Assembly: GCA_024137785.1 (NCBI GenBank)
Contig: JAHRHZ010000020.1
Coordinates: forward strand, 57,712,903-57,776,902
Origin: Ginglymostoma cirratum
Taxonomy: Eukaryota
DNA: 64,000 nucleotides
Reading direction: 5' to 3'
Part shown: positions 1,689 through 64,000 of the stretch, piece by piece
How positions within the stretch are numbered: position 1 is the stretch's first letter
Layout of the letters: the number at the start of each line of letters is the position of its first letter
Made by a program: the position numbers and the translations under genes
Notes under the pieces: model-generated
Database searches by the model: none
Told to the model about the DNA's origin: nothing
Seen by the model: the letters and a program-made list of their open reading frames with translations, nothing else

Positions 1689-2136
1689 GTGTATGTTGGT
1701 GTGTTCGCCGAGCTGGGAGGTGTGATAGCAGATGTTTCATCCCCTTATTAGGTGACATCCTCAGTGCTGTGGAGCTTCCTGTGAAACGCTGTCGTCTTGT
1801 GCTGGTTTGAATTTATATGGTCTGGTTTGAATTTATATGGTCTGGTTTTTGATGCTTCCAGTAGGTGCCGGTGCCGGTTCCGCCTCTGGCTGTGCACTGT
1901 AATCGTCGGTATATCAGGTTTCACAACATACAGCCGGAACTGGCATCTACCAGAAGCAGCAAAAACGGGACCATATAAATTCGAACCGGCACAAGGAAAC
2001 AGCATTTCACGGGAGGCTCTGTAGCACTGAGGATGTCACTTAGTAAGGGGGCGAAACATGCTATCAAACCTCCCAGCTCAGCAAACAACGTCTCTACAGT
2101 CTGCACCCGAGCTACAAATCTTCACTCAAACCTTGA
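1689..2136. mobile_element. Penelope-derived inverted two-arm element (family A) with a hammerhead motif in each arm
   Basis: Arms ~1702-1880 and ~1932-2088 are reverse complements. CTGAGGA-stem-GAAAC occurs at 2027-2057 (+) and 1734-1764 (-). Flanked by the 9/10 direct repeat tcaa(a/g)ttact at 1679-1688 and 2137-2146. Confidence 0.8.
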
Positions 2137-5100
2137 TCAAGTTACTACAGTGTGGTTTCATGTATCTGCTGCATTAGGTAATTGATCTAAGCTGGTGGGG
2201 TGAGCATACAGCACAGCTGTGTCACAACTGGTAACTTTGCGAAGTAGTTGTGACAGCACTACATGGAGTGGTTGGTATTTATTACCAGACAACAGCAATA
2301 ATCAGTGTTTACCCCCTGCTTTTGGAATCTGAACTTGGAAATTGATTTCAGTTAAGAGTACAACCCGCCTTGATTCAGCAAAGTTCACTCTGTCTTTAAA
2401 CTAACAAAAGAGCAATTTCAGTTAGACTTCAAGCAATGATCCAAGAGAGTTCTCCTACCAAAAGCTTGAGCACACATTACAGGCCAGCTCAGTGTGGAAT
2501 AGGTGGTGTGCTGTGTTATGAGAGATGCCATCTTCTTCAGCAACCCCATGCCCACGTTCAGACTAAGCCTAGAAGATTCCATACAACTTAGTAAGGAACA
2601 GGGCAATCCTCAACCAATGCCTTGGAAAGGGATCTTGTCAACAACTTCACTGTTTTGTTATTGACCCATGGGCAGTACTGACGAGACAGCACTTGGTGCT
2701 TATTACTGGTTGCCTTGAAGACATTGAGTCAGCTAGTTATGTTTCAAAATGGTGGATTAATGAATTTTTCATGAAGGATATTGGTGAATTGGGTTTTTTA
2801 ATAATCCAGTGGGCAGCTACAATATCCACGAACAGAATTATTCAGTTCAGTTGTGTTTCGTGACATTTGAAGTCCTGACCTCTGACTTGCTGGTCAAGTG
2901 CCATAACTTGTTGTGTTGCTGTTGTTCAGAGTTGTCTATGAAGAGTAGTTCCCCCTCGCCCCCACCCTGCCTTGTCCGTACATGTTCTGCACTTCATTCT
3001 TCCCAGACGAAGTGCAGTACCTTTTTAAACGTAGAATAAAGCTTGTACTCTTAGCCAAAAATGTACCTCTGCTAAGTTGATGCATTGTTCCATTCCTCTG
3101 CCCCATTGTTATGTCAAAAGCTTCTAATTAGTTCTAAATGATGGGCGCCTTCAGAATTAGGATTTTGACTGTGTCTTCATTCTCTTTCTAAATTAACTCC
3201 CTACTTGTGGATCTGTTTTAAAAGGCAGGACTCCTTTGACATAGCAGAAATGGTCAGATTCCTGAACAGTAAACCAATGGGAAGACTCCTGAGACCAATT
3301 GAGTTAATTTTTAGGGATCAAAGTCTGTCTGTTACATTGCAGTTTGTCACTGTTGTTTAGACTTATGCACAAGATATTTTATCCTTAGCTTCTCTAGCTA
3401 CCTAGTGCATATTCTGCTATCCATTTTGCTGAAACTTATTACGTAAACTATAACAAGGTTTAGCTTGAAACCATAATCTTAGTCATACTTCTCCTGGAAT
3501 CTGCGATAAGAACAAGTTGAGAGAGAAAGTAGTTGCATTTTTAAAATGCCTTGTGTGATCTCAGGATGTCCCAGAGTAATCGAAGTATTTGGAATGCCAA
3601 TCAGTGTGTTGATTTGTAGAAAACCAATAGTGAGTGACTAAGCAGGGTTAACCATCAATGTGACAGAATCAATTCAGCATGCAGCAGGCACCAAGGGCTG
3701 AGTGGCCTGCTGCTCTTCCTAATATCTCGAAGTTGTTGTAAGAAGCCATGATCTGGACTTGGAGCCAGTGAAGTTTACTTGTGAAGTAAATCCTTCTTAC
3801 CTCCACAGGATCAATAAATGAGGATGTTAGTTTGAATAGCGTGTAAGCCCACTCTTAGGCATGGGGTCCAACACCTGTCTGTCTAGTGTCACTGGCCTTT
3901 TAAGACACAATCAGTTGCGGCTGCTGGCAGCAAGGTTACTGTGCGTTGACTACCATCTTGGGTTACCATGGTCTTGTTATTGTAATACCTTAAGAACATC
4001 TTTGCCCTGTCTTACCTGTATGACATAAGGAAACTCAAATCATGACCTTTCATTCTCAAAAGGTTTAATCAAAGCCAACGCTTTAAGCTGAGTGCTATCC
4101 TTCAGCACTGCAAGCAGATAGCTTTAAACATTTCCCCCGCCCCCAGCAAACAAATGTCTGCGAAAACAGATGATGCAATGCTTGTGATCTAATTAAGGTG
4201 AATTATCTAGTGTTGATATTGAATGAATAGTCAGTTGGTGAGAGTTCTAATGTTAGAGATGGGTCTCTGGGAAGGAACAATTCGGGCAGTTAGTGTGTGT
4301 TTTGAACAGTATCAGGCCCCCACCCCAAGCTAATTACTTTCTGCTGATGTTGGGTTTTGGTGCTGACCTCTTACAACTTCCAGCATGTGAAATACTGGTT
4401 GAAACAAAACCGAAATGTGGTTGCTGTGATGTGTGTTCACAGTTCTTGTGACAGGCTTAACACATTGCAGTGTTCATATGACGTGTGGAGCTGGCTGTTT
4501 TAAAAACTGAAAAGCTGGAGAAATGTGGCATCTCTCAGCATTGTTACAGAGAAACGGTTAATGTTTTGAATATGAAGACTCTGCTCCATGCAGCAATTAA
4601 TCTGAAACCAAAGCTTTGTGTAACTATGATTGCATGGTAAATGAATTTGTCTCAGGGCCAACATTTCAAATGCTATCTGTAAACAGTCTGCCTGTGTTTC
4701 TTCCATCCTGAACCAAGCAGTGGCTTCTCTGTTTTAAGTTCTGTTTTAAAGTTCAGTGGAGCTATACTGTAGCCTGGAGTAACTTAGTTGTGACCTGATT
4801 TTCCCTGCCCCACTTAACCGATCGTCCTTCACCTGCTACCCGTACTCTTAGCTTATTTACATGCCTCAGCACAGTTTGCTCACTACATTATACTAATAAA
4901 GAGCAAGAAGGGATAGCAAAGGAGCTTAAGACAAGAATAGTTCCCAGAATGGGCTTTGTAGAATTTGACAACAGCCCTTGGTATTTACATGAATGGCTTT
5001 CTCCTGTGTGTAACTGAAGCCTTCGTATCCACACTTAATGAAGAAATAGCTGAATGAACACACTGAACTGCTTTTCTTACTTAAGGTCTGTCTGGGATCT

Positions 5101-5244
5101 TCACTGATTACTCGTTTTGTTGAAAAGTAACGGGCAGAGAATTGATGGAACTTTTTCGCACATTAGTACGTGTTTGACTTGGTCATATGAATGCACTTGA
5201 AGAAACATGTACTCATTTCTCTCCTTTCCTTCAATAAATTGCAG

Positions 5245-5742
5245 AAACAATCCCAGTATCCTCATCAACAGATTGGCAAGCGGCTTTTGGGTTTGGCTCC
5301 TCCAAACAGCAAGAGGATGACCTGGGTTTTGATCCATTCGACATCACCAGGAAAGCCTTAGCAGACCTGATAGAGAAAGAACTCTCAGTCCAGGACCAGC
5401 CTTCCAACACAAGCCTCACTTCCCTCACCTCACTACAGACCCCTCCGCAAACTGCAAACAAAGGCATTGGTGGCTTCTTGACCCCCTCTGCTGCCACAAC
5501 AGCCAACTCCATAGGCAACTCTTTCCCCAACTCCATATTACCGCGGAGGTTCCCAGCTTTTCAGCACAGAGCCGTCTACAACTCGTTCAGTTTTCCGGGT
5601 CAGGCACGGTACCCGTGGATGGCCTATCCTCACAATAGCATGATGCACTTGAACCACACAGCAACGCCCACCTCGAACAGTAATTTCTTGGACTTAAATA
5701 TACCACCTCACAGCACAGGACTTGGTGGAATTCCTATATCAG
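5245..5742 (+). CDS. CNOT4: CNOT4 internal coding exon (498 nt, phase 1-1) containing the CAF40-binding motif
   Basis: Acceptor ttgcag|aaac at 5244/5245 and donor TCAG|gtaggt at 5742/5743. It translates as (E)TIPVSSSTDWQAAFGFGSSKQQEDDLGFDPFDITRKALADLIEKELSVQDQPS...HRAVYNSFSFPGQARYPWMAYP..MHLNHTATPTSNSNFLDLNIPP..TGLGGIPIS, which I recognise as vertebrate CNOT4. EDDLGFDPFD.TRKALADLIEKE (5313-5381) is the metazoan NOT4 CAF40-binding motif. Confidence 0.96.
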
Positions 5743-5934
5743 GTAGGTGGCAACCGGTGGATAATTCTAAATTTACCAACTTGCTGTACCCTTTTACAAA
5801 TGAATGTATAAAAGCACCTTGTACTGGACTTAGCTGTCAAGGGTCATTGTTAGAACTGCTCCTAGAGATGGGTTTTGTGATTGCTTATGTATGACTTGAC
5901 TTAGATCATCTTCATTGATAAATCCTAGCAGTGC

Positions 5935-12721: not shown

Positions 12722-12935
12722 AAAATAAAGATGCTGTGGCATGCTGGGGGAACTGAAAGTAAAGCAGAAATTGCTGGTGAAACTCAGCTGGGCTGCTCAC
12801 ATCCGTTGGAAGAAAGCAGAGGTAACATTTCAAGTCTAATTCTGAACAAGAGTCACGAGACTCAAAACATTAAGTCTGCTTTCTTTCCACAAATGAATCT
12901 GGACCTGAGTTTTGCTAGCAATTTGTTTTGAGTGT
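12722..12935. mobile_element. Compact palindromic Penelope-derived element (family D) with degenerate hammerhead
   Basis: aaagcagaaattgctggtgaaactcag...gaagaaagcagag and ctgctttctttccac...ctgagttttgctagcaatttgtttt form inverted arms. The centre ctgaacaagagtcacgagactcaaaacattaa is a decayed CTGAAGA-stem-GAAACGTT. Confidence 0.65.
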
Positions 12936-13582: not shown

Positions 13583-16510
13583 GTTTATTCTGTCTCTGGC
13601 CATGAGCATCGCTGGCTGGGCCAGCTTTTATTGCCCACCCCAAGTTGACCTTGAGAAGGTGATGGTGAGCTGCCTCCTTGAACTGCTGCAGTCCATGTGC
13701 TGTAAGTGGCTGTTAGGATGGGCGTTCCAGGATTTTTACCCAGTGACCATGTACTTCCAAGCCAGGATGATGAGTGGCTCGGAGGGACAGTTGAGATAGC
13801 AATATTCCCATGTATCTGCTGTCCTTGCCCTTTGAGATGGTAGAACTTGTGGATTTAGAAGGTGCTTTCTAAGGATCTTTGAATTTCTGCAGTACATCTT
13901 GCAGACAGTACACATTGCTGATATTGAGCTTCAGCAGTGGAGGCAGTGGATACTTCTCAATGGGGTGCCAATCAAACAGGCTGCTTTGTCCTGGATTGTG
14001 TGAAGCATCTTCAGTGGTGTTGGATCTGCGGTTATTCAGAAAAGTGGGCAGTATTCCATCACATGCCTGACTTGTACTTTGTAGATGGTGGATAGGCCTG
14101 AGTGAGTTATGGAGGTAAATCACTCACTGCAGTCTTCCTAGCCACTGCATTAATATGGCAAGCCCAGTTGAGTTCCTGGTAACGCCCAAGATGTTGTTAA
14201 TTTGGTGAAGGGGGTTGGTTGTTTAGTGACAATGCCATTGAACGTCATGGGGTAGTGGTTAGATTGTCTTGGTGGTTGATCATTGCCTGGCATTTGTGTG
14301 GGGTGAATGTGACTTGCACTTTTCAGCTCATCTGGATATTGTCCAGATCTTGTTCCATTTGAACATGGTCGTCTTCAGTATCTGAGGAGTTGCAAATGGC
14401 GCAGAGCTTTGTGCAAACATTGCCGCTTCTGACCTTATGATGGAGGGAAGATCCTTAATGAAACAGCTGAAGATGTTTGGTCCTTGGACACTACCCTCAG
14501 GAACTCCTGCAGAGGTGTCCAGGAGCTCAGGTGACTGACTTCAGACAACCACTACCATCTTCCTGTGTGCCAGGTTTGACTCCAACCAGCAGAGGGTGTG
14601 CCCTTGTTTCCCCACTGACACCACTTTGGTTCAGGTTCCATGCCACGTTCTGTCAAATGGGGCCTTGATGTCAAGGGCCGTCACTCTCCTCTCACCTCAC
14701 CTCTGAAATTTAGCTCTTTTGTTCATGTTTGAATCAAGGCTGTAATGAGGTCAGGAGCTGAAGAGAACCCAAACTGGGCATGACTGAGCAAGTTATTGCT
14801 GAGCAGGTGCTGCTTGATTGCACCGATGACACCTTCCGTCACTTTACTGATGATTGAGAGTAGGCTATTGAGGCGGTAATTGGCCAGGTTGGATTTGTCC
14901 TGCTTTCTGTATACAGACATACCTGAGCACTTGGCCATTGTCAGATGTCATTGTTGTAACTGTACTGGAAGAACTTGGCTAGGGATACACCAAATTCTGG
15001 ACCCTGCCTTCAGTACTATAGTCATTCCAGTATCCAGTGCCTCGAGCCCTTGATCTCAAGGAATTGGTTCAACTAACTGAAGACTGGCGTCATCTTGGGG
15101 ACTACAGGAGGAGGCCACGGTGAATCATCCAATAGCTTTTCTGGCTGAAAATTGTTGCAAATACTTCAGCCTTATCTTTCGCACTCAGGAGCTGAGCCTC
15201 CACCCTCTCTCTTCTCCTCCTCCTCCTCCTCCCCCCCCCCCCCCAAATCATTGGGCATGGGGTTATTTGTGGACACTCCTTCTCCACTGTTTTTTAACTG
15301 CCCACCACCATCCATAACTAGACTGCAGACCTTAGATCTGACGTACTGATTGTGGGAACACTTAGTTCCGTTGACATTTGACATGCAAGTAGTCCTGTTT
15401 GGTAGTTAGACCAGGTTGACATGTCATTTTCAGGTGTGCTTGGTGCAGCTCCTCGCATGCCCTTCTGCATTTTCCATTGAACCAGGATTGATCCCCTAGC
15501 TGAAAAAGAAACTGCAGATGTTGTAAATCAGAAACGGAAACAAGTTGCTGGAGAAGCTCAGCAGGTCTTGAAGAGGAATCGTGGTTTATGCTTTGGGTCC
15601 AGTAACCCTTCCTCAGAACTGGTAGCCAGGAAAATGTCAGTTTGTATGCAAAAGTTAGGGATTCTCAATGTGAAGGCAGGACTTGATCTCCATGAGGACT
15701 GTGTGATGGTCACTCTCAATGATACTTCATGGGCGAATGCATGTGCAGCTGGCAGATTGGCAAAGATGTTTTTTTGTTTTTTTTTTTGTGGTTCCCTCAC
15801 CACCTGCCACAGATTCAGTATAGCAGCTGTGTCCTTTAGGACCTGACCAGCTGAAATGAGTTGTGTTTTTGCTGAGCCGGACATAGAAGTCCCCCACTGA
15901 GAGTTCATTTTGTGTCCTTATCACTCTGTGCTTCCACCAGGTGTTGGTTAGCATAGAGTAAGCTGAGGGAGGGTGGTTGTGGTAATCAGCAGGAAGTTTT
16001 CCTTGACTACATTTGACCCGATGCCATGAGACATCGGGTCTGGAGTCAATAGTGAGGACTCCCAGGACAACTCCCTGCTGACTTTTTTCCACTGTGCTGC
16101 CACCTCTACACCTCTGTACCTCTGTTGCTTAATCAGTCTCTGAAAAAGCTCCCCCATTTTGGCACTAGCCCCCAGATGTTTGTCAAGAAGACTTGGCGGG
16201 GTTGACAAGGCTGTTCTTTGCCATTGTTGTTTCTGGTACCTAGGTTATACTCGGTGGTCTGTCTGGTTTTCTTTCTTTGTCGAGACTTCATAGCGATTGT
16301 TATAATGATGTGGCTTGCTAAGCTATTTCAGAGGGCAGTTAATGATCAACCATATTGCTTGTCGGTCTCTGGTCACATGCAGGCCAGACCAAGTCAGGAT
16401 GACTGATTACATCTGAACCACATGATGGGATTTGAACCTCACTCCAGAACATTAGCTGAGTTTCTGGATTTATAGTTGAGCAATAATTCTACTGGGACAT
16501 TGCTTTCCCC
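13583..16510 (-). mobile_element. CR1/L2-clade LINE, internally deleted, with tRNA-like 5' head
   Basis: ORF 14723..14938 reads NLANYR..SLLSIISKV.EGVI..IKQHLLSNNLLS.AQFGF..SAPDLITALIQ (RT N-terminus), with endonuclease-like remnants at 15730-16100. 3' tail gggcaataaaagctggcccagccagcgatg. The 5' end carries ggttcaaatccc (B box). Confidence 0.85.
15502..15660 (-). mobile_element. Penelope-derived end fragment nested in LINE
   Basis: The minus strand reads agttCTGAGGAagggttactggaccc aaagc, a decayed family D hammerhead, followed by the ctgagcttctccagcaact...atctgcagt tail. Confidence 0.6.
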
Positions 16511-21929: not shown

Positions 21930-22660
21930 ATGCAGCAGGCAGTTCTGGAGGGAAGTAGCATGTCGGCCTTAATGCAACAAGTTTAGCATACAGGAATGAA
22001 CAAATTTTGCTACAGTTGTATAGGAATCTGGGTGAGATCCCTTCTATGAAATGCATGCAATTTCTTTTCTCTGATTTAATGAATGATATAATCGCATTAG
22101 AGGCAATAAAGCCAAGGTTCAATGAATTGGTCCCTGGCTTCAGGAGCTTGTCTGATGGTCAGAGAGACAATAAGGACTACGGATGGTGGAAGCCAGAGTC
22201 TGTAGGTGTGAGGCTGGGTCCTGACGAAAGGTTTTGACCCAAAATGTTCACTTACCTGCTCTTCTGATATATTGTCTGATGGTCAACTTAATTTCCTCAG
22301 CCCAAGTTCCTTTGTGGCTTAATTCTGAAGAGACATGATAGGGTAGATGCTGGGAGATGGTATCTGCTGCTCTTGATTTAAATCATAGGGGCATAGCCTT
22401 AAGGGTTGCTTAGTTTAAATTGATCAGTTGAGGTGATGCGTTATCTCCGAGTGTCGTAAAGCTCTGGAATTCTCTCTACCCAACAGAGTTGGGTGAGCTT
22501 CATCACTGAATACGTTAAAGGTGGGGGATAGACCATTTACTGATCTCTCTGAAATTGGGATGTGGTGGTGGTGTTGAGTTGAAGCCCATGACCATTGATA
22601 TTCAATGGTGGAGCAGGTGCAGTGGGCCATATTGTAGTCTTCTCTTGCTTATTTTTCTGA
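21930..22660 (+). mobile_element. Old CR1 LINE 3' fragment interrupted by a Penelope micro-insertion
   Basis: MLQLYRNL..P.MKCMQF motif and CR1 3' UTR aatggtggagcagg...gggcc. Confidence 0.7.
22162..22271. mobile_element. 110-bp inverted Penelope-derived micro-element with 14-bp TSD
   Basis: ttgtctgatggtca occurs at 22148-22161 and 22272-22285. Inside are a minus-oriented PLE tail and a plus CTGACGA-aaggttttgaccc-aaaatgtt (decayed hammerhead). Confidence 0.7.
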
Positions 22661-23339
22661 ATTAAAGATGCTGGAGATGTGAAATTGCTGTTTTTATTTT
22701 GGTAGAAACTCAAAAGGTCTGACAGTATCTGTGGAAAAAGTTAATATTTCAAGTTCAATATGACTTCCTTGTGCTCCTCCAAAGAACTGCTTCGTTGTCG
22801 ATTCCTGTTTGGCCATGAAATTGGCAGCTTGTCCCAGTTTTCCTCCTCTAATTTTTTAATATCAGGATATCGTCCCTCTCTAATTTCCAGCCTATGACTG
22901 GAGTAGTGTGCGTCAAGGGTCACTTCTCCAGCCTGAGATGTTTAAATTCTAACTTCATGACTTCGATAAAATGCTGATGTGTCAAACTTTCCTGATGCTA
23001 TCAAGCTGTGGAAAGGATACACGCTGCAAGTAAATGAAGACCGTCTAAGTGAATGGGTTACAAGGTGATAGATGAGAAATGATCTGAGCAATATGAAGTT
23101 ATTCACTGCTCAGAAGTCAAAAAAAAATCTGCTGCCTTTGTGTCAAATGATTTCCCTCTAGTGTCGACTGAATGTCATTTAGAAATTCTTAATTGTCTCT
23201 GTTTCTTGTGCCACCTTAGGCAGTGAGTTCCAGATCAATGTCATTCCATTGCATTAGAAAAAATTCACATGTCCGGCTTGTTGACCAGCAACTGAGATTT
23301 ATGTCCCCTGGTCTTGCTGATAATCCAACGTGTCAATTC

Positions 23340-24130: not shown

Positions 24131-25383
24131 ATGCTACCTATTTTTTCTATTCCACTTCAGCCAACACTTGTTTTCTTACCTTTTGTAATTGCCCTTTGTT
24201 TTGCACTTAAGGCTCTTTCAAATCTATTTCTCATCTTTCACCTGTGAAATTATTCTTTAACGTCATTGAGGATGCTTTTATTGTGAGGCCAGTAATTAAC
24301 CTTGCCTCAATACACGTTACAAAGTTTGAAGTAGCCTGTTCACTGGTTCCAAATGTAGAGTTGTAAGAAACGGTCCCAAATACACTATGCAAACTAATTC
24401 CCCCAGCTACTATTGCTAATTTGATTCTTTCACTCTGATTGAAGGTTAAAATCTCCCATGATTATTGCAGAACATTTCTTTTAAACTGCTGTTGTTTCTC
24501 GCACTGTGTTTTATAGTGTAGCTTTGGCCCTATAAATGCTCCGACTGTTGGCTTTCCTTAGCATTTTTTCCATACCCAAATTGATTGTACACCTTGATCC
24601 CTTATGCCAAGATTATTTTTCACTCCCCTATACTGACCTCATTATGGAGTAGCTGTTCTTCCGATATTACACACAGCTCTGGGTATTCAGATGTCAGCCA
24701 CAGTCACTTTGCTACTGTGTTGGCTGTGATGTGATCTCAACACAAATAGAAGTATCAATTTACACCTCTTACTGAGAATACAGCATGCATTCAGATTCTT
24801 TGGAAGTTGTGATTGTCTCAGTTTAGCATGAATGCATGACAAGCCGATTTGAGTGAATATCGTAGTGTCTGCTTTTTTTTTTTTTGTCCTGCTGTCTCAT
24901 CTTCAGAAACATCCAAAGTCAGCTCAAGTAAAAGTAACAAGCATGGGGCTGGATGAACACAGGTCAAACAGCATCACAGGAGCAGGAAAACTTGACGACG
25001 TTTTGGGCCTAAACCCTTCATCAGAAATGGGGGAGGGGAAGAGGGTTCTGAAATAAATAGGGAGAGAGGGGGAGGCGGATAGAAGATGGATAGAGGAGAG
25101 GATAGGTGGAGAGGAGGCAGACAAGTCGAAGAGGCGGGGATGGAGCCAGTAAAGGAGTGTGTAGGTAGGGGGGTAGGGAGGATGGACAGGTCAAGGGGGC
25201 GGGATGATGTTAGGAGATGGGGGTGTGGCTTGAGGTGAGAGGAAAAACAGGTTAGGGAGGTGGAGATGAGCTGGGCTGGTTTTGGGATGCGGTTGGGGGA
25301 GGGGAGATTTTGAAGCTTGTGAAATCCACATTGATGCCATTGGGCTGCAGGGTTCCCAGGCTGAATATGATTTGCTGTTCCTG

Positions 25384-25783: not shown

Positions 25784-25913
25784 TCTCCTTTACTGGCTCC
25801 ATCCCCGCCTCTTCGACTTGTCTGCCTCCTCTCCACCTATCCTCTCCTCTATCCATCCTCTATCCGCCTCCCCCTCTCTCCCTATTTATTTCAGAACCCT
25901 CTTCCCCTCCCCC

Positions 25914-25949
25914 ATTTCTGATGAAGGGTCTAGGCCCGAAACGTCAAGT
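25914..25949 (+). ncRNA. Minimal type I hammerhead ribozyme motif (intact core)
   Basis: attt-CTGATGA-a-GGG(tctagg)CCC-GAAA-CG-TC-aagt. Both core boxes are intact, stem II is GGG/CCC, palindromic ACGT replaces stem III, the cleavage triplet is GUC, and stem I is a 4-bp attt/aagt. Confidence 0.75.
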
Positions 25950-27234
25950 TTTCCTGCTCCTGTGATGCTGCTTGACCTGCTGTGTTCATCCAGCCCCATG
26001 CTTGTTATCTTGGATTCTCCAGCATCTGCAGTACCTTTTATCTCTCAAGTAAAAGTAATTAAGCTTCCTGGCATAACCTAGGGACAGTCCAAAACTAACA
26101 TGCATAGATCAGAGTGAACAAGACAATGTTTTATGAACTTTGTTTCAGAGGTAGACTTTCTCCTATTTATTTCCAGGTCAGTGTTCAAAGTTTGTCCAAG
26201 TCTGCATTTGCTGAGGATGTTTTATCTCTTAATCACCAACACTGTTTTTCACCTCACTGATCACCACAAAATATCTTGGATGCGCTCCTCAGTCTTATTG
26301 TCGTCTAACCAACTGTCATCACCAGACAGAGGGATAGGTGTAACGCATATGTAACAAAAACCATGTGTGGTGCTGACTGCTGGACTAACTACTGTCTTCT
26401 CATTTCAAAGCCAAAACGAAGGATTTATCCAACGGGTGCCTCTCGGGCATCAAAAACCAGCAATCTCTCGTGAGTCTCCAGTCTAACATGTAGCAGTGAA
26501 GTAATCACTTTTTTTTCCCCATTGCAAAGGGACACACTCTTGCAAAGAGGTTAACCAGGCAACTTTTCAAGATGTTTTACACCACTCTTCCAGAAACCAT
26601 TAGCACTACCTTTTAATAAACATCAAGATTAATTTGAAACCAGTGAGATAACCCAGAATCAATGAGAAGAGAAACATTTCCTTTGCAGAGTTTACCTCAG
26701 TGACAAGTAATTTACAACTTAACCGCAATGCCTAACCTGACAATGGCAACCCTGTTCAGTGCCAACTCTGATTTAAAAAGTAGACCAGCTACATGCAGCC
26801 TGATGCAGACCACAAAGACAGGAAGAGATTCCAGAATGGGTAGTGAGTAATTGCTATGGAATGAAAGCTGACTGAGCAATTACTGTGTAGGTGTGACTCA
26901 TGAAATGTATCAAAAGCCTTGGCTAAGGCACAGGAAAAAATGCTACCAGTGCATGGTATGGACTAGGAGGTTGGAGATTTGGTACAGATGGGGCAAGAGG
27001 TGTTCCTTTTAGTTTAACTTACAATAAGCCAAGTGAATTAATAACATTACCCTTCAAGTGTACGAAACCAGTTTCAGTTAGAGTTGGTAGTGCAGGTGGT
27101 TTGCTGTATGACAGCTTATAACAGTTCGTGGAGCTAGCATAATCCTAGGCAACAGTACCTATAACCACTGTCTGCTCTTTGAATCTTTGTCTAAGAGCTG
27201 TTAAGGTGGAATCCAAGATACAGACATTACAGTG

Positions 27235-27336
27235 CATCAGTTCTGAGGAAGGGTCACCGGACTTGTTACGTTAACTCTGATCTTTTCCTCACAGATACTG
27301 CCAGATCTGAGCTTTTCCAGCAACTTCTGTTTTTGT
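27235..27336 (+). mobile_element. Penelope-derived end fragment (family D), hammerhead with GAAA box mutated
   Basis: agtt-CTGAGGA-a-gggtc(accg)gactt-GTTA-cgtt-aact. Stem I agtt/aact is retained. Confidence 0.65.
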
Positions 27337-28899
27337 AAGGAAATAAGCGGTCTAGCTGCATATTTTGACCCAGGCGGCAGCCATGGCTTTGGGGTTAGAT
27401 AGTTATTTAGATTTTGGATAAAAATAAATGGGGGACAGGAGGATTTGGCTGTTGGGTCATGAAAAATGATCTTGGTTCAGAGGGTGGAATTAGCTTGGAT
27501 ACAGCAAAAAATGTGAAGGCAAGTCAGTGCTAAAATAGTTTAAGGGGATCATGAATGTAGCAGTGCAAGTCTTTGACTTGAGTATGAGCTACTTGTTATT
27601 GGTTTAGATGAGAACAAATGGAGGGAGCTTGAGCAAATTGGCTAACCACTGGTACAGGATACCATTCAGATCAGAGTAAAAGGGATTGTTGATGGTATGC
27701 GGTGGATGTTGTTATTATTGAGAAATAGATATTGTTCTGTGCAGCCTCCAACTAAAGTTTAAGGACATCTCTCAGCTGGTGGAATAGGGATTGTGGGTGT
27801 GGGGACAGAACTCAATTGTGCGGTCCACGTAGCGAACAATTACAAGAAGTAGTAATGAGGTTCTGCTGAGATCTCAAGCTGGAGTCCAGTCTAAGTAGCA
27901 GAAATTGAAAGGCTGTTAGTTCAGGCGGTAGTCTAATGCTTTGTGACAGATATATAATTGCAGGAATGGAGTGAGGTAGACTTTTTTATTTGGAACGTTA
28001 CACTTAAACGTGTTCGTATCAGTGTTTTAGTGACTTAAGTAACTGGTGCAGGTAGGGGTGGGGTGTTGAGTAAGGGTAAATTTCAAGTTAATGAGAGAAG
28101 TCAAGCGATAGAGCAGTGTCACAATTTAGTTAAAATAAACTGCCAGGAAGGGCTTCAGTGTGGTCATGGGGATGTCTAGAAAAATGGACGAATCAGCAAT
28201 GAGATGAGGTAGGTTCTGACAGATAGCAGCCAAGAAACTTGTAGAATTACTTTGAGTAACCAAGGGCAGAAAACACTGGTAGGACTGTTTTAGTGGCCCC
28301 TTGAGCCATTATCATCTTGAATTGAATATGAATAGGGAATTGAAGTGGCATGTCAGAGGGTAGTATGGAAGTGTACACTTCAGAAATTAGTGTGGAAGTG
28401 TACACCTGAGAAATTGGGCGTATCCACTTATCTAGAAGGACGATGAGATTTACGACAGTTGTCTGCAACGGTGAGAGTCACCAAATCGGGAACAGACTTT
28501 GCCAGGTCTCTCATGATGTACTGAAACAGGGCTAATTAATCTCATATGAGAGAATATTCCAGAGAAGTGTGATCAGGACCTTCATTAAATTCTCATGCTG
28601 AGCATGGTGCGGTTACATTCAAAATGTGAAGGGAAAAGTTGTTTAAGGCAGATTGGAAAATTAAATTGTTGACCATTTAACCATATAAATATTAAAAACA
28701 CATTTAATTCCGGAATGAAAAAATATATACATTTTCTTCAATAAAAGCTCCATTTAATAAGCCCTGACTAGCGGAAATGTTAGTAGATTAAAAGAATCCT
28801 AAAACATTCCCAAAAGAGTAGTAAGTAGCACAGTAAATCGAGGTTTAGAATAGGATGAAAGAATAGAATAAGTATGGAAACAAATTGTTGGAAAAATGT

Positions 28900-32220: not shown

Positions 32221-33054
32221 GCTGGAGGAGGGAAGGGTTCCAGTGGTGCTGTAGGTGTGTTGGGCATTGGTACCTATGAGTTGATGTTTCTTGCTTTCTT
32301 TGATATATGAAAGGAAGAGAGAAATTTTCTTAAAACGAACGAACAGCCGAAAGTAGAAGAACTGAGATGCAGGAAAGCTTTGACAAAGAATGAGGTGGAT
32401 TGATGGAGATTAGAACTTTCTGGAACATTTCAAAGGAAAAAGTGTATTAATAGATTCATGGAACCAAAAACATTTCAATTTTAATCACCTAATAATACAT
32501 ACAGGATTTTTTTTAAAGTGGTAGCTTCATAGATATAAGTGTGGCTTTTAATCTTCCAAAATTCCCCAGTCCTGGAAAGGTCTCTGGATTGAAATTCTCC
32601 TCTTCAAGTAGCAGTGTTAGATTTGTTGTGAGAGGAAGAGAAAACGAGGGATAATACTTGAATCTTCAAGAATCTCTAACTTTCAAAGGAGATAGAAGGG
32701 AACTGGAGTTAGTGCTCTGTCTGATTCTTCAAAAAGCATTCATCAAAAAGTTACATGACAGGCAGTATTAAGAGTTTAGGGTTTATGGGACTGTGGATAA
32801 TCTTAACATGGAATGAATTTTTTTTTAACTGGGTAGGAGTAGATGACATTTTTTTGGAATTAAAGCATCTAATTAGGGATTGCTGCAAGGATCGTTGTTT
32901 GGGTTTCAGAGATTTATGGTCTTTATCAATAACTTGAGAGAGGGGATGGGGTGCAATATTTTTGTTTCTGTCTTCATTATTGAGGTTGCATAACATCTTA
33001 CTAATAGCTGCAAAAAGGGAGAAAGAAGACCGAGAATTCCAGCTTCGTAGTTTG

Positions 33055-33662: not shown

Positions 33663-33699
33663 ATAAAAACTTGGTGAAATTATAACCAGGGAAACTGCT

Positions 33700-35404: not shown

Positions 35405-35575
35405 GTTAAAGGAGAATAGTGCAGATAGTTGAAATCAGAAATGAGCTCTCGACCATCTCTTCAGACAAGGCAGCATCTATGAAGAGGAGTCGTATTGGAC
35501 TCTAAACATTAACTCTGTGTCTCTCTCCATAGATGCTCCCAGACCACCTGAATTTCTCCAGCACTTTATGCTGTG
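35405..35575 (+). mobile_element. Penelope-derived end fragment (family D), decayed hammerhead
   Basis: atgaagaggagtcgtattggactctaaacattaactctgtgtctctctccatagatgct...tttctccagcact. Confidence 0.55.
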
Positions 35576-37330: not shown

Positions 37331-39555
37331 GCCATGTGGTCTGAGGCACTCGTAACAGGAAAGGACTTCTCAGGATGTGATTAGTCAGAAGGCTGTACAT
37401 TTTAAGAAAGATCTCCAGAAATTTGTGACTTCAGGTCCACGGAAGCTGAAGGCATGGTTCAAAAAGTGAAATGAATGATGTGTGTGAAAGGCCCTGCTTA
37501 GCAATGAACAATGGGGTGCACTTAGTATTTTGTATTTCCTTGAAGGTTTCAGGTTGTGTCCCATGTTTTTCCACTGTTATTGCAGGGTGATTTTTCTCAT
37601 TTTTAAGCAGTGTCTGTGGCTGCACTAATTTCTTAAATTCCACAGGAACATTAATTTGCAGTTCCCATTCTTCTAGGTTAAATTGCAATGCCCTAGAGAA
37701 AATAAAGTCGCGATTTTACATGTAGTTGCACTCATAATTAGTCACCCTGACAGACTTGCATCCACCAGTAATTCATTTGTGTTAGCTAGTTGAGTGATCT
37801 CTGAAGACACCATGCAACTTCGATAGGATACCAATCTCGAGTTGGGAGGTTTTGTTTTCCATGGTTCAAATGAATCGGGTCAAAGATTTCTGCTGTCAGG
37901 TCCAAATGAAGTGCTCTCGCGCTCAATCCATGCAGACTGCAAAGGCATTCATGCCACAACTAGCATTTTTCAGATACAAATGTTTTCATGGTAACTAATG
38001 GTTAAGATGCATTGGGAATTGGATCTGATAATGAGATTTTCAATTTCCCTGGCGCTATCACGAAGGTTGGCTAACAGACTATTGCCAACTTTTGAAATGG
38101 AGTAACTTGGACTTTTGTATTGGTGCGATTGTTGTGCTCTGGTCGTTAGGCCTAATTTGTGCCGTATAGCTGATAAGAGCTGTAGACCAGTCAACAACTT
38201 GACAACAAAGGCATAGTTTTTTATTTAAATGCCTTTGGTTTTTAAACTGGTAATAGTTGGTGTGATAACTTGAGTTTATTGGGAATTAAAAATTCTCTAG
38301 GTTAGAAACCTGAATATGTTGAAGGGAGGTCTCTCACTCATTTGTGTAAATCATCATTACCTGTTTTGATTAGACAAGACAGTGAATGGAGTAACTCAAG
38401 ACCATACTCCCATCTTGAAATTCTTATAAGCAAATTATATTCCCAGTACTCAACTGTTGAAAACCTATGAGACTGCAGCTCATCTTTGTGCTGCACATCT
38501 AATTGATCTCGGAACCACTGAAAGCCAAGTCACATCGCTCAATAATTCAGCAAATAGATTTGGTTGACGCTTAGATACTTAAGCCAATTAACTAAATGGT
38601 AGCAAAACTATTCACCTGCCTGTTGTGCTTCCTTCCAAATCTTTGTCTAACCCTGGAATATTCAGTTTCTTCACTGCTGGAAGTACTGGTCAGAATGAAG
38701 ACTTTAAATCATGGCTGTTAAGTGCTCAAAGAGTTGCAAGTGTCTGCACATGTGTGGTTGAATTCGTTATTTCGAATCGTTCAGGATAGGAGTCTTCATC
38801 CTGCTTTCAGTTTGGGGTATATTTTTAAAGCTGTGAGGACAACACTAAAGCTGAAGGGAGTGAGAGACCAGTGAAATGAGATTGCAGTTGGAATAAAATG
38901 TTATTTGACATTAATTTTGCCAGAAAGGATTGAAAAGCAGTAAGTTTTTTTTTCACGACATGAGAGACTCAGTTAGCAAGAATTGCATATGCTGGAGTCA
39001 GAGATAACACAGTATGGAGCTGGAGGATGCTGCCTATGTTCCTGGGCAGAAAAGCTGGGGCTTTTCTCTTCAGAATGACGAAGGATGAGAGGTGACTTGA
39101 TAAAAGTGTACAAAATAATCAGAGGTATAGATGGAGTAGACAGCCAGAGACTTTTTCCTCGGGTAGATGATACATCTTTTCACTCAAATGTTTGCAAAGA
39201 TTTTGGAATTATTGACCCTTGAAGGTCGTGTCCGTGATTGAATATTCAAGTCTGAAAATGATACTGATTTGACGCCTCGGGCAGTTGAGGCAGATTGAGA
39301 GCAGGGGAATAAATGGAGTTGAGACTGAAGTTCAACCATGATTTTATTGAATAGCAGAGTAGGCATTAGGCATTGTATGGTGAACATCTGCTATTTTGCA
39401 TGTTCTTACTGCATAACATTTATTTCAGCAACCCCAGCCATGTCCTCAGTCACAATATGAACAAAATATCAAAGATACTGGGGTTGTTCACCCCTGTTTA
39501 AGTTGACTAGTTTGTTTAACCACCTGTCTTATTTCAAGGCAGCAAAAATTAGAGG

Positions 39556-39760
39556 TAACAAGCGTGGGGCTGGATGAACACAGCAGGTCAGGCAGCATCA
39601 TAGGAGCAGGAAAACTTGACGTTTCAGCCTAGACCCTTCATCAGAAATGGGGGAGGGGAAGAGGGTTCTGAAATAAATAGGGAGAGAGGGGGAGGTGGAT
39701 AGAGGAGAGGATAGGTGGAGAGGAGGCAGACAAGTCGAAGAGGTGGGGATGGAGCCAGTT
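39556..39760 (-). mobile_element. Young 205-bp Penelope family B fragment with 9-bp TSD and intact hammerhead core
   Basis: aattagagg occurs at 39547-39555 and 39761-39769. The minus strand reads atttCTGATGAagggtctaggctGAAACGTCaagt. Near-identical to 24935-25150. Confidence 0.85.
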
Positions 39761-40032
39761 AATTAGAGGCCCTACTGAATGCAGATAAGTGCTTTTCGTC
39801 CAAAGTCATCTCGCTTCAGGGCTCAAGCTTTGTTTTCCCAAGTACACATTCAAAAGTAACCGAAGATTTGAATATTCAAATGTAGTTTCTCTTGGCTGTG
39901 TAATACTGATGTTAAACAGTTTCTTTGTATATGTGCGGATGGTGGAATGCTTATAGGCTCCCGACCTCTCCCCTGCGCCCCCTTCCCTTTTCCAACAAAC
40001 AACATTCAACTATTCCGTTATATCAACTCATT

Positions 40033-42342: not shown

Positions 42343-42938
42343 ATAATTGCTCAGTTGTACAGAGCTTGCTTTGAGAAAAGAGGCTGTCAAAGCTTTTGCC
42401 TTGCATGCATCAGGACAGAGACAATGCCAAATTTTCAAGTGGAGCAATGCTTTATGCTACATGAGGGAAAAGTTTTGTTGGCAAGTTGGCTCTGAGGTGT
42501 TGCCAAGGAAAACGGCCCAGGTATTGTTTTGTTCAATTCAAAAGAGATGCAGCGTCTGGACATTTCCTTTTTCCTGCAGAGGATGGGTCTCTGTAAGTGA
42601 GCCACATTGCAAGCCTGTCTGATCTTAAATTGGTTGTTTAATAATTCTACCTGTTGTGAAAATCTGTGTGGTTTGTCATGTGATCCACCGGCCTTCAGGA
42701 TGTGCAGCCTGACCTGGTCCAGAAATAGACCTTTTTATTTCCTGAGCCAAATAGGGACATGGTCGACTACAGCTCCCTGGTGCATTTTCCATTATGCCTC
42801 CACTGATGAGTTGACTTGCCAATCAATGAGCAGCTTTTTTGGCAATTTCATTTGTTGCTCTCTTTAATTTGGTGTTCTCGAGTCTGTCTTCATGAGTGCA
42901 AGATGAAAATCTTAACAGCATGTCTCTCTTTCCTTTCC
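42343..42938. mobile_element. Penelope-derived inverted two-arm element (family C) with 12-bp TSD
   Basis: tgcaatataaaa occurs at 42331-42342 and 42939-42950. Both ends carry a decayed ctgtc-CTGATGA-gtgcaagac-GAAA-agctt-gacag motif in opposite orientations. The internal minus strand encodes a NNQFKI..ACNVA-like GIY-YIG remnant. Confidence 0.7.
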
Positions 42939-45113
42939 TGCAATATAAAAGTAGCTTCAAAGAGAATTCCTTTAGCATGTTAACAAGACCAGGGAGGACT
43001 CTTATGCAATTTAGTCAGAAGGAGCCCTGAACAAGCTGCCTTTTGCTGTTAGGAAGGGAGCCTTTGCGTTCTTGACCAAACTGGTTATGCCCATTATAGC
43101 CCAAGTTGCATCTCCATTAATTTAAGGTTCTGTATACAAATGTGAGCATGCGCAGGCAATTACTTTGAGGTTATTGGCTGACCTGTAGCATGTCAATTCT
43201 TGAGAGCTCCTCAAATGGCGTTGTAAATGTCAGGTGGAGCACTTTTCAAGCATACAGCTGTTGAAAACCTGCTCAGTTCAAATTTCCTTTCTTTGATTTG
43301 TGTTCAATTTGCAATGTGACCAAGGTTTAAATAAAGCACTCTTGACCACTATATCATCTGCATTCTTAGAAATAAATTATGTTCTCTGACTTCAGTTATT
43401 TCTTATGACTGTTATTCCAGATGATAAACATACTTTTGGTGGTTGTAGCCAAGCAATCTGTTCATTTAATTACTTAAGTAGTTAGCTCTCAACCAAATCA
43501 TGATTAGAACCTGCAGTTTGTGACTGAATAACTTAATCTGTTTTATGGCATCTACAGGAATTGAATTTGACCTTTCTGAAGCCACTGTGCCATCGGCTTC
43601 GATCAAAAGCTCCCCTCCTAACTATTAATGATTTTCAATAAAATAAGCTAGTTAGAAAGCAAGGCTCGAGCTACTAAGGCTAAAAGTGACTGCATAAATA
43701 TTGAGGTAAATATACATATATTGATTAACTAATGCAAAGGAAGGATTGCAAAATGAAGACAGTGTTAACTGAAAGGTCAATCTTGGAGGTGGTGATATTA
43801 TTCAAGGGATATGTTTACTTGTTTTAATTCAGTTAATTTCCCATGAGGCGATGAAGAACAGCACCAGCTGACCTACACCTACCCTCCCAATCAACTCCTT
43901 TGGTGTTGATCTGTGGGAGGAAGTATATAGAGCAGATGAGCTGTAGATATTTCTAACCAACCTATTCAAACATGTTATGGCGTACTTCTGTAGCAGGTGA
44001 TACCTGATCATGGGACTCCTGACATAGTGGTAGGGACACTACCACTGCAACACAAGAACCCCATGTGGATAACCGGTACAAATAATGAAATTATCAGCAA
44101 TTGTTAATTTGAGGTAACTGGACTATCATGAAATTGAAATAATGCTGACGTGTTGACACACTGGTCCCAATGTGTACATAATTTGAACAGATTAAAATTA
44201 GGTTGTTTTGTAGGATTTCCAAAGCTCTGCCCCTGTTTGAGAGGCAGACAGAAAGGAGTGACTGGAGATAATGTCATTCGATGGACAGGACTTTCTGTTC
44301 ACTATCAGGCCTTGTGGTAAAGATTTTTCTTTCAACACTTGCTCTGAATTTATTTTCTTTACTTTCTATTCCCTCTTCGAACATCCAGAAACTGTTGATG
44401 GAGCTGTGATTTGCTTTTTCCAACCATGGTGACATTGCAGGATTAACAGAATGAATCTTGGGGTTGGATGTTAAATTGGTTTCAATGAATATTGTAAAGA
44501 AAATGCATGTTAAAACCTGCAGAGCCCAAAGTTTATGCAGGAAACCACTTGACTTCCTAATTGCCTCATAAATGTTTTTTTTGCATTTGCTTCTGGCTTT
44601 GTCATGTCAGTGGCCTGCAGGTATGTTGATTTAAGTAAACAAAGGCTTAGAGTTCAGGGAGGAATCTTTATTGTTAGGACTGTGACCAAGGGATTTTGGA
44701 AGTAAGAATTCACACTGGGCCAGAGCAATTTTCATGTACCCAAGACTAGAAACAGGATACAGGGGATGTGAATGTGTTGCAGTGGATGGGATAGAAATGG
44801 GATCCAGGGATTATGCAACAACCTATGGAGACTGAGTGCGCAGAATATGATGAGTGTAATGAAATGGAGAATGGACAAACAAGTGATCTCTCGTGCAAAA
44901 CTGAAACAGTGAGCAGGGCAATGGCAAGTATGAGAACCCTAGTAGTAATAATGGAAATGCCCCCTTTTAATGTGAGCAAATCGAATGAATGTGGGCTAGT
45001 GAGTACAAGACCCCTTAAGTGGCATGGAGTCAAGACCAGTAAAAGTCCAAAAATAATCTGGCAATGCCCAGTTAATTTTTGCTTTTCCTTTTATTTTATT
45101 TTATTTTTTTCAG

Positions 45114-46620: not shown

Positions 46621-47939
46621 AAGTCCTTTTGTACTTAATGCTCGTTAAACAGAGCCATTTATGTAATAGTCTAGTTTACCTAAGCTGCCCCATTCTCTGA
46701 TTGCAAGGCCTGAAAAATGTGCCAATTAGGTGTGGGAAGACTTTTCCCAACATTGATAAGCTGGCTTTATTAAAGATGGCCATCGTGATACATCCACAGC
46801 TGTTCTGTCGTTATGCTCCTGACGTACAGCGGTGCTGAAGAGTTGTCCTTTACTTTCAATATCAATGGGAGTTGTTAGAAAATACTCTTTAAAATATTCT
46901 AATTCATGTTGCAAGGCCTCCCCTCCAGCGATTTACGCAAAGATTTTTGCTAGCAATAAATTTGGTGTACTTCAGCCTTTTGATTTGCATTCTTGCATCT
47001 GCATCTGCAGTATAGCCAAACAGAAGACAATATCAATATGCAAACTGCATCTTGGCTGTAAGGTTTATGAATACAGCTTAGCCTGAACTATTTGTAGCAG
47101 GCTGTTGAATGGAAGTACAAACGAGTTGAGATTTTTCAGCTTCTTACCACCTGGTGTTGCTGTTGGTCACATGCAGTCTTTGAGTCACTGGTTTACCCAG
47201 CTGGCTATTGTTTTGTTTCAGTCTGGGATCTGCAGCGCAGCTGAACAGATAACAGTCTGACCCCGAGCTGATTTCTAGGAACCTCTGTTAGGGAATGGTC
47301 AATCTTTGGGGTGTCTGACTCCTTCACTTGGTTGGGCGATGTGTCTGTCTCCTCCTCCCTTGCCAGATGTGTGGCTGTTTTGCTTTTGGCTTTTTTTAAT
47401 CTCTTGTTTTGCGCTCCTATCCATTATTCGTTGTTTAACCATTGAGTTTGTACAAGTTTGGCAATACAATTATGGCAATGCAGCCATTTTTGACTAATGC
47501 TGGAAGTACTCAGCATGTCACGCAACATGTATCAAGAGAAGTGGAGTTCATGTTTCAGATTAGTTACCTCAGTCATCTTGGATCCATTTTGAAAGTAGGG
47601 TCTTTTAATGATAACTAACTGCACACTTGTCTGAATGCTTCTTTTTAAATTGGATTCTTTGTCAGAAAGAACATGTCTTTGTTAGTCATCCTCAAAATAG
47701 CTGACACAACATGGGTATTGCTGTGGTGACACAGTTTTAGCCACTGCACTAATTATAGTAGAAAATGTTTTGCAGATATAGACCAGGCAGATTACGGGTA
47801 TTGATAGCACGGTTTGACATTATTTTGTTTTAATATCCTTCATTTTTTTTTTTTTTTTTTTGTTTTTTGTTTTGCATCATTTGTTTTTAATTATAGCATC
47901 ATTTTTGCATTGTCTGTATGTGTCACCATATCTAATCAG

Positions 47940-62729: not shown

Positions 62730-63120
62730 AATTGGCCAGAGAAAGCAGTGGCTCCAAGTCCCACTGTCGGCACTGGGCTCAAAGAAGTCAAAGCCGATGA
62801 CCAGCTAAAATACTAATGGAGTGCTGCAGTGTTGATGATGCTGCGTTTTCTATTGAAATGATATACTGGGGCCTGGTCCTCCCTCTCAAGTGGGTGAAAA
62901 AGCATCAATATTCAATGTGTTAAAGAGAAAAAGGGGAGATATCCCGATATCCTGGCCAATGCTAATTCCTGAATCAACATTTGGAAATGTTTTATTACCA
63001 TTTCCTATTATTGTTTATTAGAGCTTGCTGTGTTATCATTTCATACATTGCAACAGTAACTGTATTTCAAAACTGCTTAATTGACTGTAAAGTTCTCTGG
63101 AGCACCCTGTGCTTATAAAA
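62730..63120 (+). mobile_element. DeuSINE (SacSINE1/AmnSINE1-like)
   Basis: Deu-domain-like ggagtgctgcagtgttg...ccctctcaagtgggtgaaaaag...aggggagat...tcctggccaat...gagcttgctgtg...acattgcaacagtaactgtatttcaaaa...ttgactgtaaag. Confidence 0.75.
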
Positions 63121-63529
63121 AAAATAATAAAATTGTGAGATTTTGTCAAAACCAATGCTTTTATTACTTGTTGCAAAAGGATTATTACAGGTTAGCTCCA
63201 GCAACAATCTCCAAAATAATTACTGGAGAATAAATGGGATAATCATCAAAATCTCTAAACACTACTAAATATAAAACAAAAAAACAGATTACTTCCAACT
63301 GCGCACAGGCTAAACTGCTAATCAGTATTTATTTAGAGACATAATTATAGTTACATTAAGCGTGGCTCGGTGGTAAATATCGGTCAACCTTACATTACAT
63401 ACAGAAAAACCGATGCTGAATTTCACTCAAGATTTTCTTAGTAAGTTTTTTGAAAGGCACTGGCATTGTCATAATTGATGGATGATTCACACCTTTCAGG
63501 CCAAAGCCCTGCCTTTGTTATTGCCCATC

Positions 63530-64000
63530 AGAAGGGTCCAGGCCGGAAACATCAGCCTTCCTGCTCCTCTGATGCTGCTTGGCCTGCTGTGTTCATCCAG
63601 CTCTATACCTTGTTATCTCAGCTTTAGTTACTGAGCATCTTGCCCTAGTATAAAAACAGGCTTCCTAGGAGCAAGAGATAACAAAGTGTGAAGCTGGAGG
63701 AACACAGCAGGCCAGGCAGCATCAGAGGAGCAGGAAAGCTGATGTTTCGGGTCAGGACCCTTCTTCAGAAATAGGGAGGGGGAAGGGAGCTCAGAAATGA
63801 ATAGAGAGAGGAGGGATGGGGCTGGGGAAGGTAGATGGGATGGTGATAGGTGAGTGCAGGTAGGGAGTAGTGGGGATTGGTCATTGGGATGGGTGGGGCA
63901 GATAGGTGGGAGAGAAGACGGACGGGTTGTGTCAGGTCAAGGAGGCGGGGATGAGAGGAAGGGTTGGTCATGGGATGAGGCTGGGGGTGGGGAGATTTTA
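63530..64000. mobile_element. Two Penelope family B-like ends facing tail-to-tail; the minus copy continues beyond the window
   Basis: 63530-63619 (+) and 63675-63764 (-) are reverse complements. The minus copy has an intact CTGAAGA-a-GGGT(cctg)ACCC-GAAAC-ATC core at 63741-63768. Confidence 0.8.

Follow-up and report, generated by a model that had tools for sequence, protein, structure and literature searches.

How did minimal hammerhead ribozymes come to stand in several quite different sequence contexts within a single stretch of shark DNA? The stretch in question, hereafter the window, comprises 64,000 nt of the 4.36 Gb genome of Ginglymostoma cirratum (assembly GCA_024137785.1, contig JAHRHZ010000020.1, positions 57,712,903 to 57,776,902 of the forward strand). 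An initial annotation had described four families of small elements (A to D), considered them unrelated, and interpreted them as non-autonomous retroelements tipped with a ribozyme and mobilized by the reverse transcriptase (RT) and GIY-YIG endonuclease (EN) of Penelope-like elements (PLEs). Here we propose, with a high degree of confidence, that the motifs are the pseudo-long terminal repeat (pseudo-LTR) ends of three lineages of EN-containing (EN+) PLEs, and that the copies in the window are truncated, mostly decayed and likely made by the elements' own RT from uncleaved RNA.

Hammerhead motifs at the ends of coding Penelope-like elements

The coding origin of the motifs becomes apparent from what lies next to them. 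When natural open reading frame (ORF) fragments were used in tblastn, RT/EN remnants were detected on the sense strand within 1.5 kb upstream of the motif at 21/30 loci of family A, 15/30 of family B and 12/30 of family D, against 0, 1 and 1 loci (30 each) downstream; one or two of the 12 upstream matches of D belong to neighbouring B copies. The Pfam GIY-YIG domain scores above its cut-off on a family B fragment (L025, E 4.1e-5), and two family A fragments give RVT_1 and GIY-YIG matches below the Pfam cut-off. Among the longer relatives of the B ORF, the best 120 measure 779-1626 amino acids, mostly 800-950; most of them carry RVT_1 and many also GIY-YIG. The upstream coding remnants, together with the match in motif, bear out the assignment to Penelope-type minimal type I hammerheads that have a palindrome instead of helix III and are moved by PLE RT/GIY-YIG. 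The notion of separate non-autonomous families is not supported, as the motif forms the 3' end of RT and GIY-YIG coding sequence in A, B, D and probably C. Because of this position, the copies are to be regarded as truncated autonomous elements.

The families are also fewer than supposed. The B profile matches all 30 D copies and the D profile all 26 B copies at the DNA level, and the proteins of D and B share 50-62% amino acid identity; B and D are thus homologous, which reduces the four allegedly unrelated families to three lineages. The profiles of A and C match neither B nor D, save for one C locus with a D-type copy in its flank. A C-x2-5-C-x2-C linker, a feature of Neptune and Nematis elements (PMC8557442), is present in the B ORF and in 54/55 of its relatives and in 0/13 relatives of A. 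Judged from their sequences, B and D are sister families of Neptune type; the labels Neptune and Poseidon rest on this Cys linker motif rather than on an RT tree with named references, and D was placed via its identity with B.

In the case of family A, the RT (L041:2082-2654, minus strand) has its nearest named relatives among carpet-shark proteins (65-77% identity). The search pattern for this family fixed an ATG triplet at the start of stem II; independent of that pattern, the N-terminus of the shark RT protein P0124 falls on ribozyme plus tail. The next named relatives of the A RT are those of the parasitic flatworms Sparganum, Spirometra, Trichobilharzia and Opisthorchis (50-59% identity), a likeness that may hint at horizontal transfer.

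Family C is probably an old lineage that likewise marks the end of a coding PLE. Its copies are colinear up to 1.3 kb upstream with 62% identity, their translations show RT- and GIY-YIG-like words, and PLE profiles match in 2/59 loci (E 2.4e-6 and 1.1e-3) compared to none in the reversed control. The best-kept part of the family, located in its upstream region (L061-L090), consists of a pair of CCAAT boxes and a TATA box some 40 nt ahead of stem I.

Anatomy of the ribozyme

The CUGANGA and GAAA boxes with an NUH site are present at the level of each family. Pairing of stem I with differing letters, as annotated, likewise holds at this level in all four families, judged by letters across families, of which B and D are related, and not by a formal covariation statistic: AGCA/TGCT in A and AGTT/AACT in D (4 bp each), TTGTC/GACAA in C (5 bp) and just 2-4 bp, (A)TTT/AAG(T), in B. 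The replacement of stem III by a palindrome is equally confirmed, with ACGT in A, B and D and AAGCTT in C. The NUH triplet is GUC in A and B, GUU in D and UUC in C. An extra nucleotide follows A9 (before position 10.1) in A, B and D and is missing in C. The G10.1-C11.1 pair is present, position C11.1 of family C being mostly T through CpG decay.

In 7/7 natural copies, folding models, which ignore core contacts, make the double-hammerhead fold 7-30 kcal/mol less favorable than the best two-strand fold, and in the family B monomer fold CUGAU pairs with GUCAAG. These modeled energies would fit a low or protein-assisted hammerhead activity. Monomer folding of six window copies gave z-scores between -0.66 and +0.89, thus no signal.

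Abundance of the families

The two boxes by themselves are not informative. Bare CTGANGA-N4-40-GAAA motifs occur 10 times in the window compared to 9.15 +/- 3.0 times in 40 dinucleotide shuffles, and only 5/10 fall in families A to D. The "about a dozen" motifs of the initial annotation are consequently at chance level as a bare count, while the families themselves are far above it: their profiles match the window 20 times at E<0.01 and the reversed window not once. Within a genome sample of 60 evenly placed 10-kb stretches (291,399 of 600,000 bases unmasked), the full minimal-hammerhead descriptor has 15 matches, against none in the reversed sample and none in 10 shuffles. As all 15 belong to B, D or C, no further abundant family appeared. 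The profiles have 98 matches in the same sample (B 48, D 43, A 4, C 3), of which 18 contain the full motif. The annotated density of several elements per 10 kb is therefore correct for remnants (about 3.1 in the window and 3.4 in the sample) and incorrect for intact motifs (2/20 and 18/98, respectively).

Genome-wide counts of exact patterns, which are lower bounds given by one pattern per family, amount to at least 18,664 ribozymes for B, 692 for D, 135 for C and 36 for A, and to at least 156,717 tails for B, 20,996 for D and 155 for A; every control gave 0. No Rfam hammerhead family was found at E<=1 within the window. A match to the Rfam family MIR7723 at 63533-63761 (minus strand) was discarded, since its 75 bits compare to a gathering score of 200 and the matched region is the hairpin of two tail-to-tail B copies. 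Such hairpins of inverted B copies could enter small-RNA pathways or yield false microRNA calls.

Ends of the copies

In A, B and D, the 3' ends fall into two classes about 35-40 nt apart, a spacing that corresponds to the known PLE tail. In family A they lie 64-80 and 109-123 nt past the ATG, with 16/30 copies in the latter range; measured from the predicted cleavage site, the two classes lie at about 58-74 and 98-110 nt in B and at 66-78 and 95-121 nt in D. A few B copies (L447 flank; flanks of L391 and L295) and RNA reads extend beyond the long tail with identical letters, which are probably the next stretch of the 5' region of a master element.

At the 5' side, copies were chosen by a pattern located entirely 3' of the cut. 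Among the B ends (n=73), 28 lie at -36 to -25 relative to the cut, only one at -100 to -37, 25 at -24 to +18 and 19 further upstream. The D ends (first 30 matches, one masked, n=29) show the same edge, with 21 at -42 to -25 and none at -200 to -43. In both families this edge coincides with the first base of stem I. In 18 B copies, TATTTA starts 31 nt ahead of the A in CCATTTC; in six D copies, TATAAA starts 29 nt ahead of the A in TCAGTTC. In each case this A lies in an initiator-like context. An inverted partner is joined within 40 nt in 30/54 short B and 15/27 short D copies, and its own 5' end often lies at the same ribozyme edge.

This sharp edge could also be made by processing, i.e., by a splice acceptor, by an RT stop or template switch, or by endonuclease cleavage at the AT-rich border of stem I. 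There is precedent: the intron of the Drosophila virilis element terminates at the 5' border of helix I (PMC4209133), and the endonuclease of the anole Poseidon element PAc prefers ATT (PMC11167929), the B edge being ATTT. Moreover, D has CTGAC, a pyrimidine tract and CAG directly before the edge. A splice acceptor is nevertheless rejected for B, which has no AG at the edge, and is unlikely for D, whose short copies have no common upstream leader and in several cases keep the AG. The spacing of 29-31 nt between TATA-like box and edge in both B and D, despite differing sequences, also argues against processing, and we consider an origin of the edge by processing unlikely, though it deserves to be kept in mind.

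The same edge bears on the question whether the short units are elements of their own, that is, non-autonomous ribozyme-tipped retroelements similar to short interspersed elements (SINEs) or retrozymes that have their own transcription and are copied as independent units by PLE proteins. Short copies with a common fixed 5' edge are indeed in the majority (54/72 unmasked B and 27/29 D copies), a fold-back seam recurs in 12/20 loci of one control set, and tandem retrozymes derived from pseudo-LTRs are known, one cartilaginous fish being among their hosts (bioRxiv 10.64898/2026.07.22.740005). Yet the short copies do not differ in sequence from the ends of copies with an ORF and show no apparent identity of their own, the short B and D copies have no upstream TATA-like box and hence no promoter of their own, and above the edge lengths are continuous to more than 1.2 kb and include coding remnants. 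Head-to-tail units that each carry a hammerhead were sought in the window alone, where no such tandem array occurs. An independent existence of the short units is therefore improbable in our view.

A further explanation, proposed by Cervera and De la Pena, is that hammerhead cleavage sets the 5' end of the copied RNA, which is cleaved, circularized and then copied. Ends within 4 nt of the cut are few (4/73 in B, 3/29 in D, 0/30 in A) against the 28 B and 21 D ends at the upstream edge. Genome-wide, 599 pattern matches of B start at the cut compared to 245 at the +10 offset and 155 at the -8 offset. Inspection of loci identified true 5' ends in 22/30 cases at the cut and in 20/20 at the -8 offset; at the +10 offset none of 20 loci continues upstream, four are masked and 12 have one common fold-back seam. 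True ends at the cut thus exceed the two control offsets about 2-4 times and, by a rough estimate, amount to about 1% of the copies versus about 40% at the upstream edge. Part of this excess could be explained by A-rich microhomology. This excess and the retention of the motif across three lineages with differing stem letters speak for the explanation; the unfavorable double-hammerhead energies in all seven copies, and the finding that ribozyme mutants leave insertion in vitro unchanged (PMC11167929), speak against cleavage as the step that defines the template. We hold this explanation to be very unlikely.

The perfect fold-back seam of the +10 set (L412-L428) lies 10 nt 3' of the family B cut site, and such matches are often paired about 450 bp apart. 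Repeated snap-back events could account for it, as could a small subfamily that is copied as one unit.

A proposed model for copying in vivo

In our model, a TATA/initiator promoter in the upstream pseudo-LTR would let transcription begin on the first base of stem I. The RT/GIY-YIG protein would cut the target DNA and prime cDNA internally, at either of two positions that lie about 70 or 105 nt 3' of where the ribozyme is predicted to cleave. Priming in the first pseudo-LTR of the RNA would end in run-off at its 5' end and give copies of 100-140 bp, while priming in the last pseudo-LTR would yield longer copies, truncated at the 5' side and still holding remnants of the ORF. Head-to-head pairs would result where both sides of the break are primed and the two cDNAs become joined. 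Cleavage by the ribozyme would require a dimer and probably the help of protein, and would rarely precede copying. The short copies are likely dead by-products, because they lack the TATA box.

The steps differ in their basis. The coding origin, the homology of B and D, truncation, tails, inverted pairs and the fixed 5' edge in B and D are observed in this genome. Internal RT start, extension of both strands, a mainly uncleaved template and a protein-assisted ribozyme are taken from the biochemistry of PAc, whose protein extends both strands and mostly uses uncleaved RNA in vitro (PMC11167929). The promoter and start site at the ribozyme edge, the run-off of short cDNAs and the joining of two cDNAs are what we infer in addition; a putative TATA box plus initiator has been described in a rotifer PLE pseudo-LTR (PMC3846280). 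A more far-reaching interpretation, to which we give an even chance, is that the tens of thousands of 100-140 bp Neptune copies represent a fossil record of Penelope copying in vivo: an RNA starting on the first base of the ribozyme, internal priming by RT with run-off at an uncut 5' end as in strong-stop cDNA, and a dimeric enzyme that primes at both sides of a double-strand break and fuses two cDNAs head to head. The hammerhead would then cut about one in 100 templates ahead of copying and serve as a 5'-end switch or brake rather than as a tool to free the template.

Several observations weigh against the proposed identity and copying route. The coding link of family C rests on just 2/59 loci, and tblastn for RT/GIY-YIG upstream of C found 0/30. 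Among 19 longer hand-picked stretches no full-length copy with the order pseudo-LTR, ORF, pseudo-LTR was present, and the longest open RT-EN frame has 461 amino acids; same-strand pairs 1.4-6.4 kb apart, examined as candidate full-length elements, did not qualify either. In 60 loci there is no common continuation past the tail. Owing to these last two results the start site is deduced from copy ends alone, and the D. virilis Penelope has an internal promoter without TATA (PMC2377424). The run-off step is not general, as 0/30 family A copies begin at the ribozyme edge and 18 extend more than 200 nt. The B sample consists of the first 90 plus-strand matches on one contig (C1), of which 17 with masked junctions were dropped, and starts at the cut site are roughly two- to fourfold over background. 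Over 25790-26050, the site of an intact B copy, none of four RNA runs shows a pile-up of starts or ends (X21; X22 with 10 reads; X1 and X2 as contigs), and X21 is unstranded, its 33,070 reads running equally in both directions.

The depth step of X21 at 25916-25924 is what read-through of DNA copies would give. As to circular RNA of unit length, a few 'goes back' joints occur in the polyA RNA run, with 22/33,070 reads for one joint, and tandem DNA copies would give the same. The RNA data neither support nor contradict the copying model.

Copies in the window and their surroundings

The 20 copies scored in the window correspond to 19 profile hits plus the stretch 22219-22270, a 28-nt hit at 54371 being omitted. 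Both core boxes are kept in 5/20 copies, and boxes, palindrome and NUH together in 2/20. Six stretches had been cited by the initial annotation as examples, all of which are correct in position and flanks; their described state applies fully to 25914-25949 only. In family A, 1725-1770 (-) keeps both boxes and has ACGT changed to ACAT, and 2022-2063 (+) keeps both boxes and has lost the NUH triplet. In family B, 39614-39648 (-) has both boxes, ACGT and GUC with a shortened stem II. Family C 42384-42418 (-) has both core boxes broken (CTGATGC; GAAA absent), and family D 27239-27274 (+) lacks GAAA.

The two family A (Poseidon-type) copies are inverted partners. The pseudo-LTR at 1689..1877 (-) has its hammerhead boxes at 1735-1764 and a decayed palindrome, and residues 4-38 of P0124 align to 1803-1699. 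The pseudo-LTR at 1934..2133 (+) includes the long tail, has boxes at 2027-2056 with an ATG where stem II begins and the NUH lost, and residues 26-53 of P0124 align to 2052-2135.

The family B (Neptune-type) copies at 24931..25383 (-) and 25784..26047 (+) are arranged head to head with a 400-N stretch between them. The former is 5'-truncated and has a broken GAAA box; it retains the end of the GIY-YIG ORF at 25276-25383, where 36/36 amino acids are identical to the family B ORF of locus L091. The latter includes the long tail and contains the fully intact minimal hammerhead at 25914-25949 with a predicted cut after 25945. A third, truncated B copy at 39547..39767 (-) keeps both boxes, ACGT and GUC and has a shortened stem II. 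Two older B-type copies stand tail to tail: a short one at 63530..63624 (+) that starts inside the ribozyme, and one at 63676..64000 (-) that keeps both boxes, has a decayed palindrome and runs off the window. A weak B-like remnant lies at 22219..22270 (+; E 0.0009, one query).

The family D copy at 30265..32226 (-) combines a pseudo-LTR remnant (30265-30344) with about 1.7 kb of decayed RT and GIY-YIG coding sequence upstream (30554-32226; E 5.6e-14 by tblastn, E 7.6e-19 in a second search). The pseudo-LTR at 15504..15661 (-) has a TATA-like stretch upstream and a broken GAAA box, and the short copy at 27233..27339 (+), in which the GAAA box is lost, starts at the 5' edge of the ribozyme. Short decayed D copies form a head-to-head pair at 12751..12931 (12751-12838 on the minus, 12838-12931 on the plus strand), as do decayed D-like copies at 35448..35573 (both strands). 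Profile matches further identify decayed D copies at 22702..22798 (-; a remnant) and 34468..34577 (-; short) and a weak D-like remnant at 47495..47571 (-). Family C is represented by an old pseudo-LTR remnant at 42372..42473 (-) with both core boxes broken and by a second copy with a broken core at 42777..42945 (+), the two being head to head.

With regard to the host locus, we take the frame at 44795-45403 (+) to resemble CNOT4. The open frame at 5238-5894 (+) aligns to the CNOT4 peptide from PDB 6hom (E 0.0015). With these two frames as putative exons of a CNOT4-like gene, most copies are probably intronic.

Other repeats in the window are of different kinds. A fold-back element of about 590 bp at 53712-54297, whose arms measure 77 nt (99%) and 96 nt (94%), resembles a miniature inverted-repeat transposable element (MITE); it lacks a hammerhead and occurs only once in the window. 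Near-perfect direct repeats (99% each) are present at 39050-39167/40126-40243 (118 nt, 1.1 kb apart), presumably a fragment of a long interspersed element (LINE), and at 57073-57161/58496-58584 (89 nt, 1.4 kb apart). Fragments repeated at 112-630, 10694-10978, 33146-33642 and elsewhere are, we assume, the 3' end of a CR1/L2-like LINE.

Comparison with known systems

The motif class and its home in the pseudo-LTR are already published, and the shark families are new members. Minimal hammerheads in the pseudo-LTRs of metazoan PLEs, found in Xena, Poseidon and Neptune of fishes, were described by Cervera and De la Pena (2014, PMC4209133), and the class has been reviewed (PMC6765202). No paper on hammerheads of shark PLEs or on the present 5' edge was found in the literature search; Dfam, Repbase and paper supplements stood outside that search and may list shark families. 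The whale shark paper, as far as its text is available to us, merely lists Penelope as present. The role of the PLE hammerhead is called unclear (PMC8557442, PMC11167929). The young copies in this genome number about 100,000 or more, which allows their ends to be placed to the exact base, and the question of that role becomes testable through the fixed 5' edge, the slight cut-site excess and the inverted pairs.

The shark motifs agree with those of PMC4209133 in the core boxes, the short helix I, the additional nucleotide that separates A9 from stem II (in A, B and D), the G10.1-C11.1 pair, the palindrome in place of helix III and the presence of several families per genome. Solo copies of truncated PLEs likewise predominate there, with opposite-strand pairs a few hundred bp apart. 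In that work the motifs did not cleave as monomers and cleaved little as dimers. The copy number differs, as a single B variant has 18,664 exact matches here versus about 4,000-9,000 motifs in coelacanth and Xenopus. Unlike the motifs presented there, family C combines a palindrome of 6 nt with a stem II of 2 bp and lacks the extra nucleotide, and stem I of B measures 2-4 bp; the accessible text of PMC4209133 names no shark.

Family A finds its counterpart in PAc, the Poseidon element of Anolis carolinensis (Frangieh et al., 2024; PMC11167929). In both, the ATG stands where stem II begins, and the cut follows 28 nt past the ATG in family A and 26 nt in PAc. The long 3' end of family A lies 109-123 nt into the ORF, and RT starts 111-118 nt into the ORF in PAc. 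Neither has the Cys linker, and two preferred 3' ends are seen in B and D of the shark as well. PAc was studied biochemically, whereas the shark families are characterized by sequence alone, and the available text of PMC11167929 makes no mention of a fixed 5' edge like that of B and D.

Like the Neptune clade (PMC8557442), the B proteins have the order RT, Cys linker, GIY-YIG. Heavy 5' truncation, an inverted 5'-truncated partner and an optional 30-40 bp tail are shared with the anatomy of EN+ PLEs (PMC8557442, PMC3846280), in contrast to which no full-length or partial-tandem copy was seen in the 19 hand-picked stretches. Finally, the non-LTR retrozymes (PMC7229834; bioRxiv 10.64898/2026.07.22.740005) share with the shark families the type I hammerhead, the short units and the link to PLE pseudo-LTRs. 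Retrozymes, however, are tandem arrays with a hammerhead per unit and a circular RNA, whereas the shark copies are the solo or inverted ends of coding elements.

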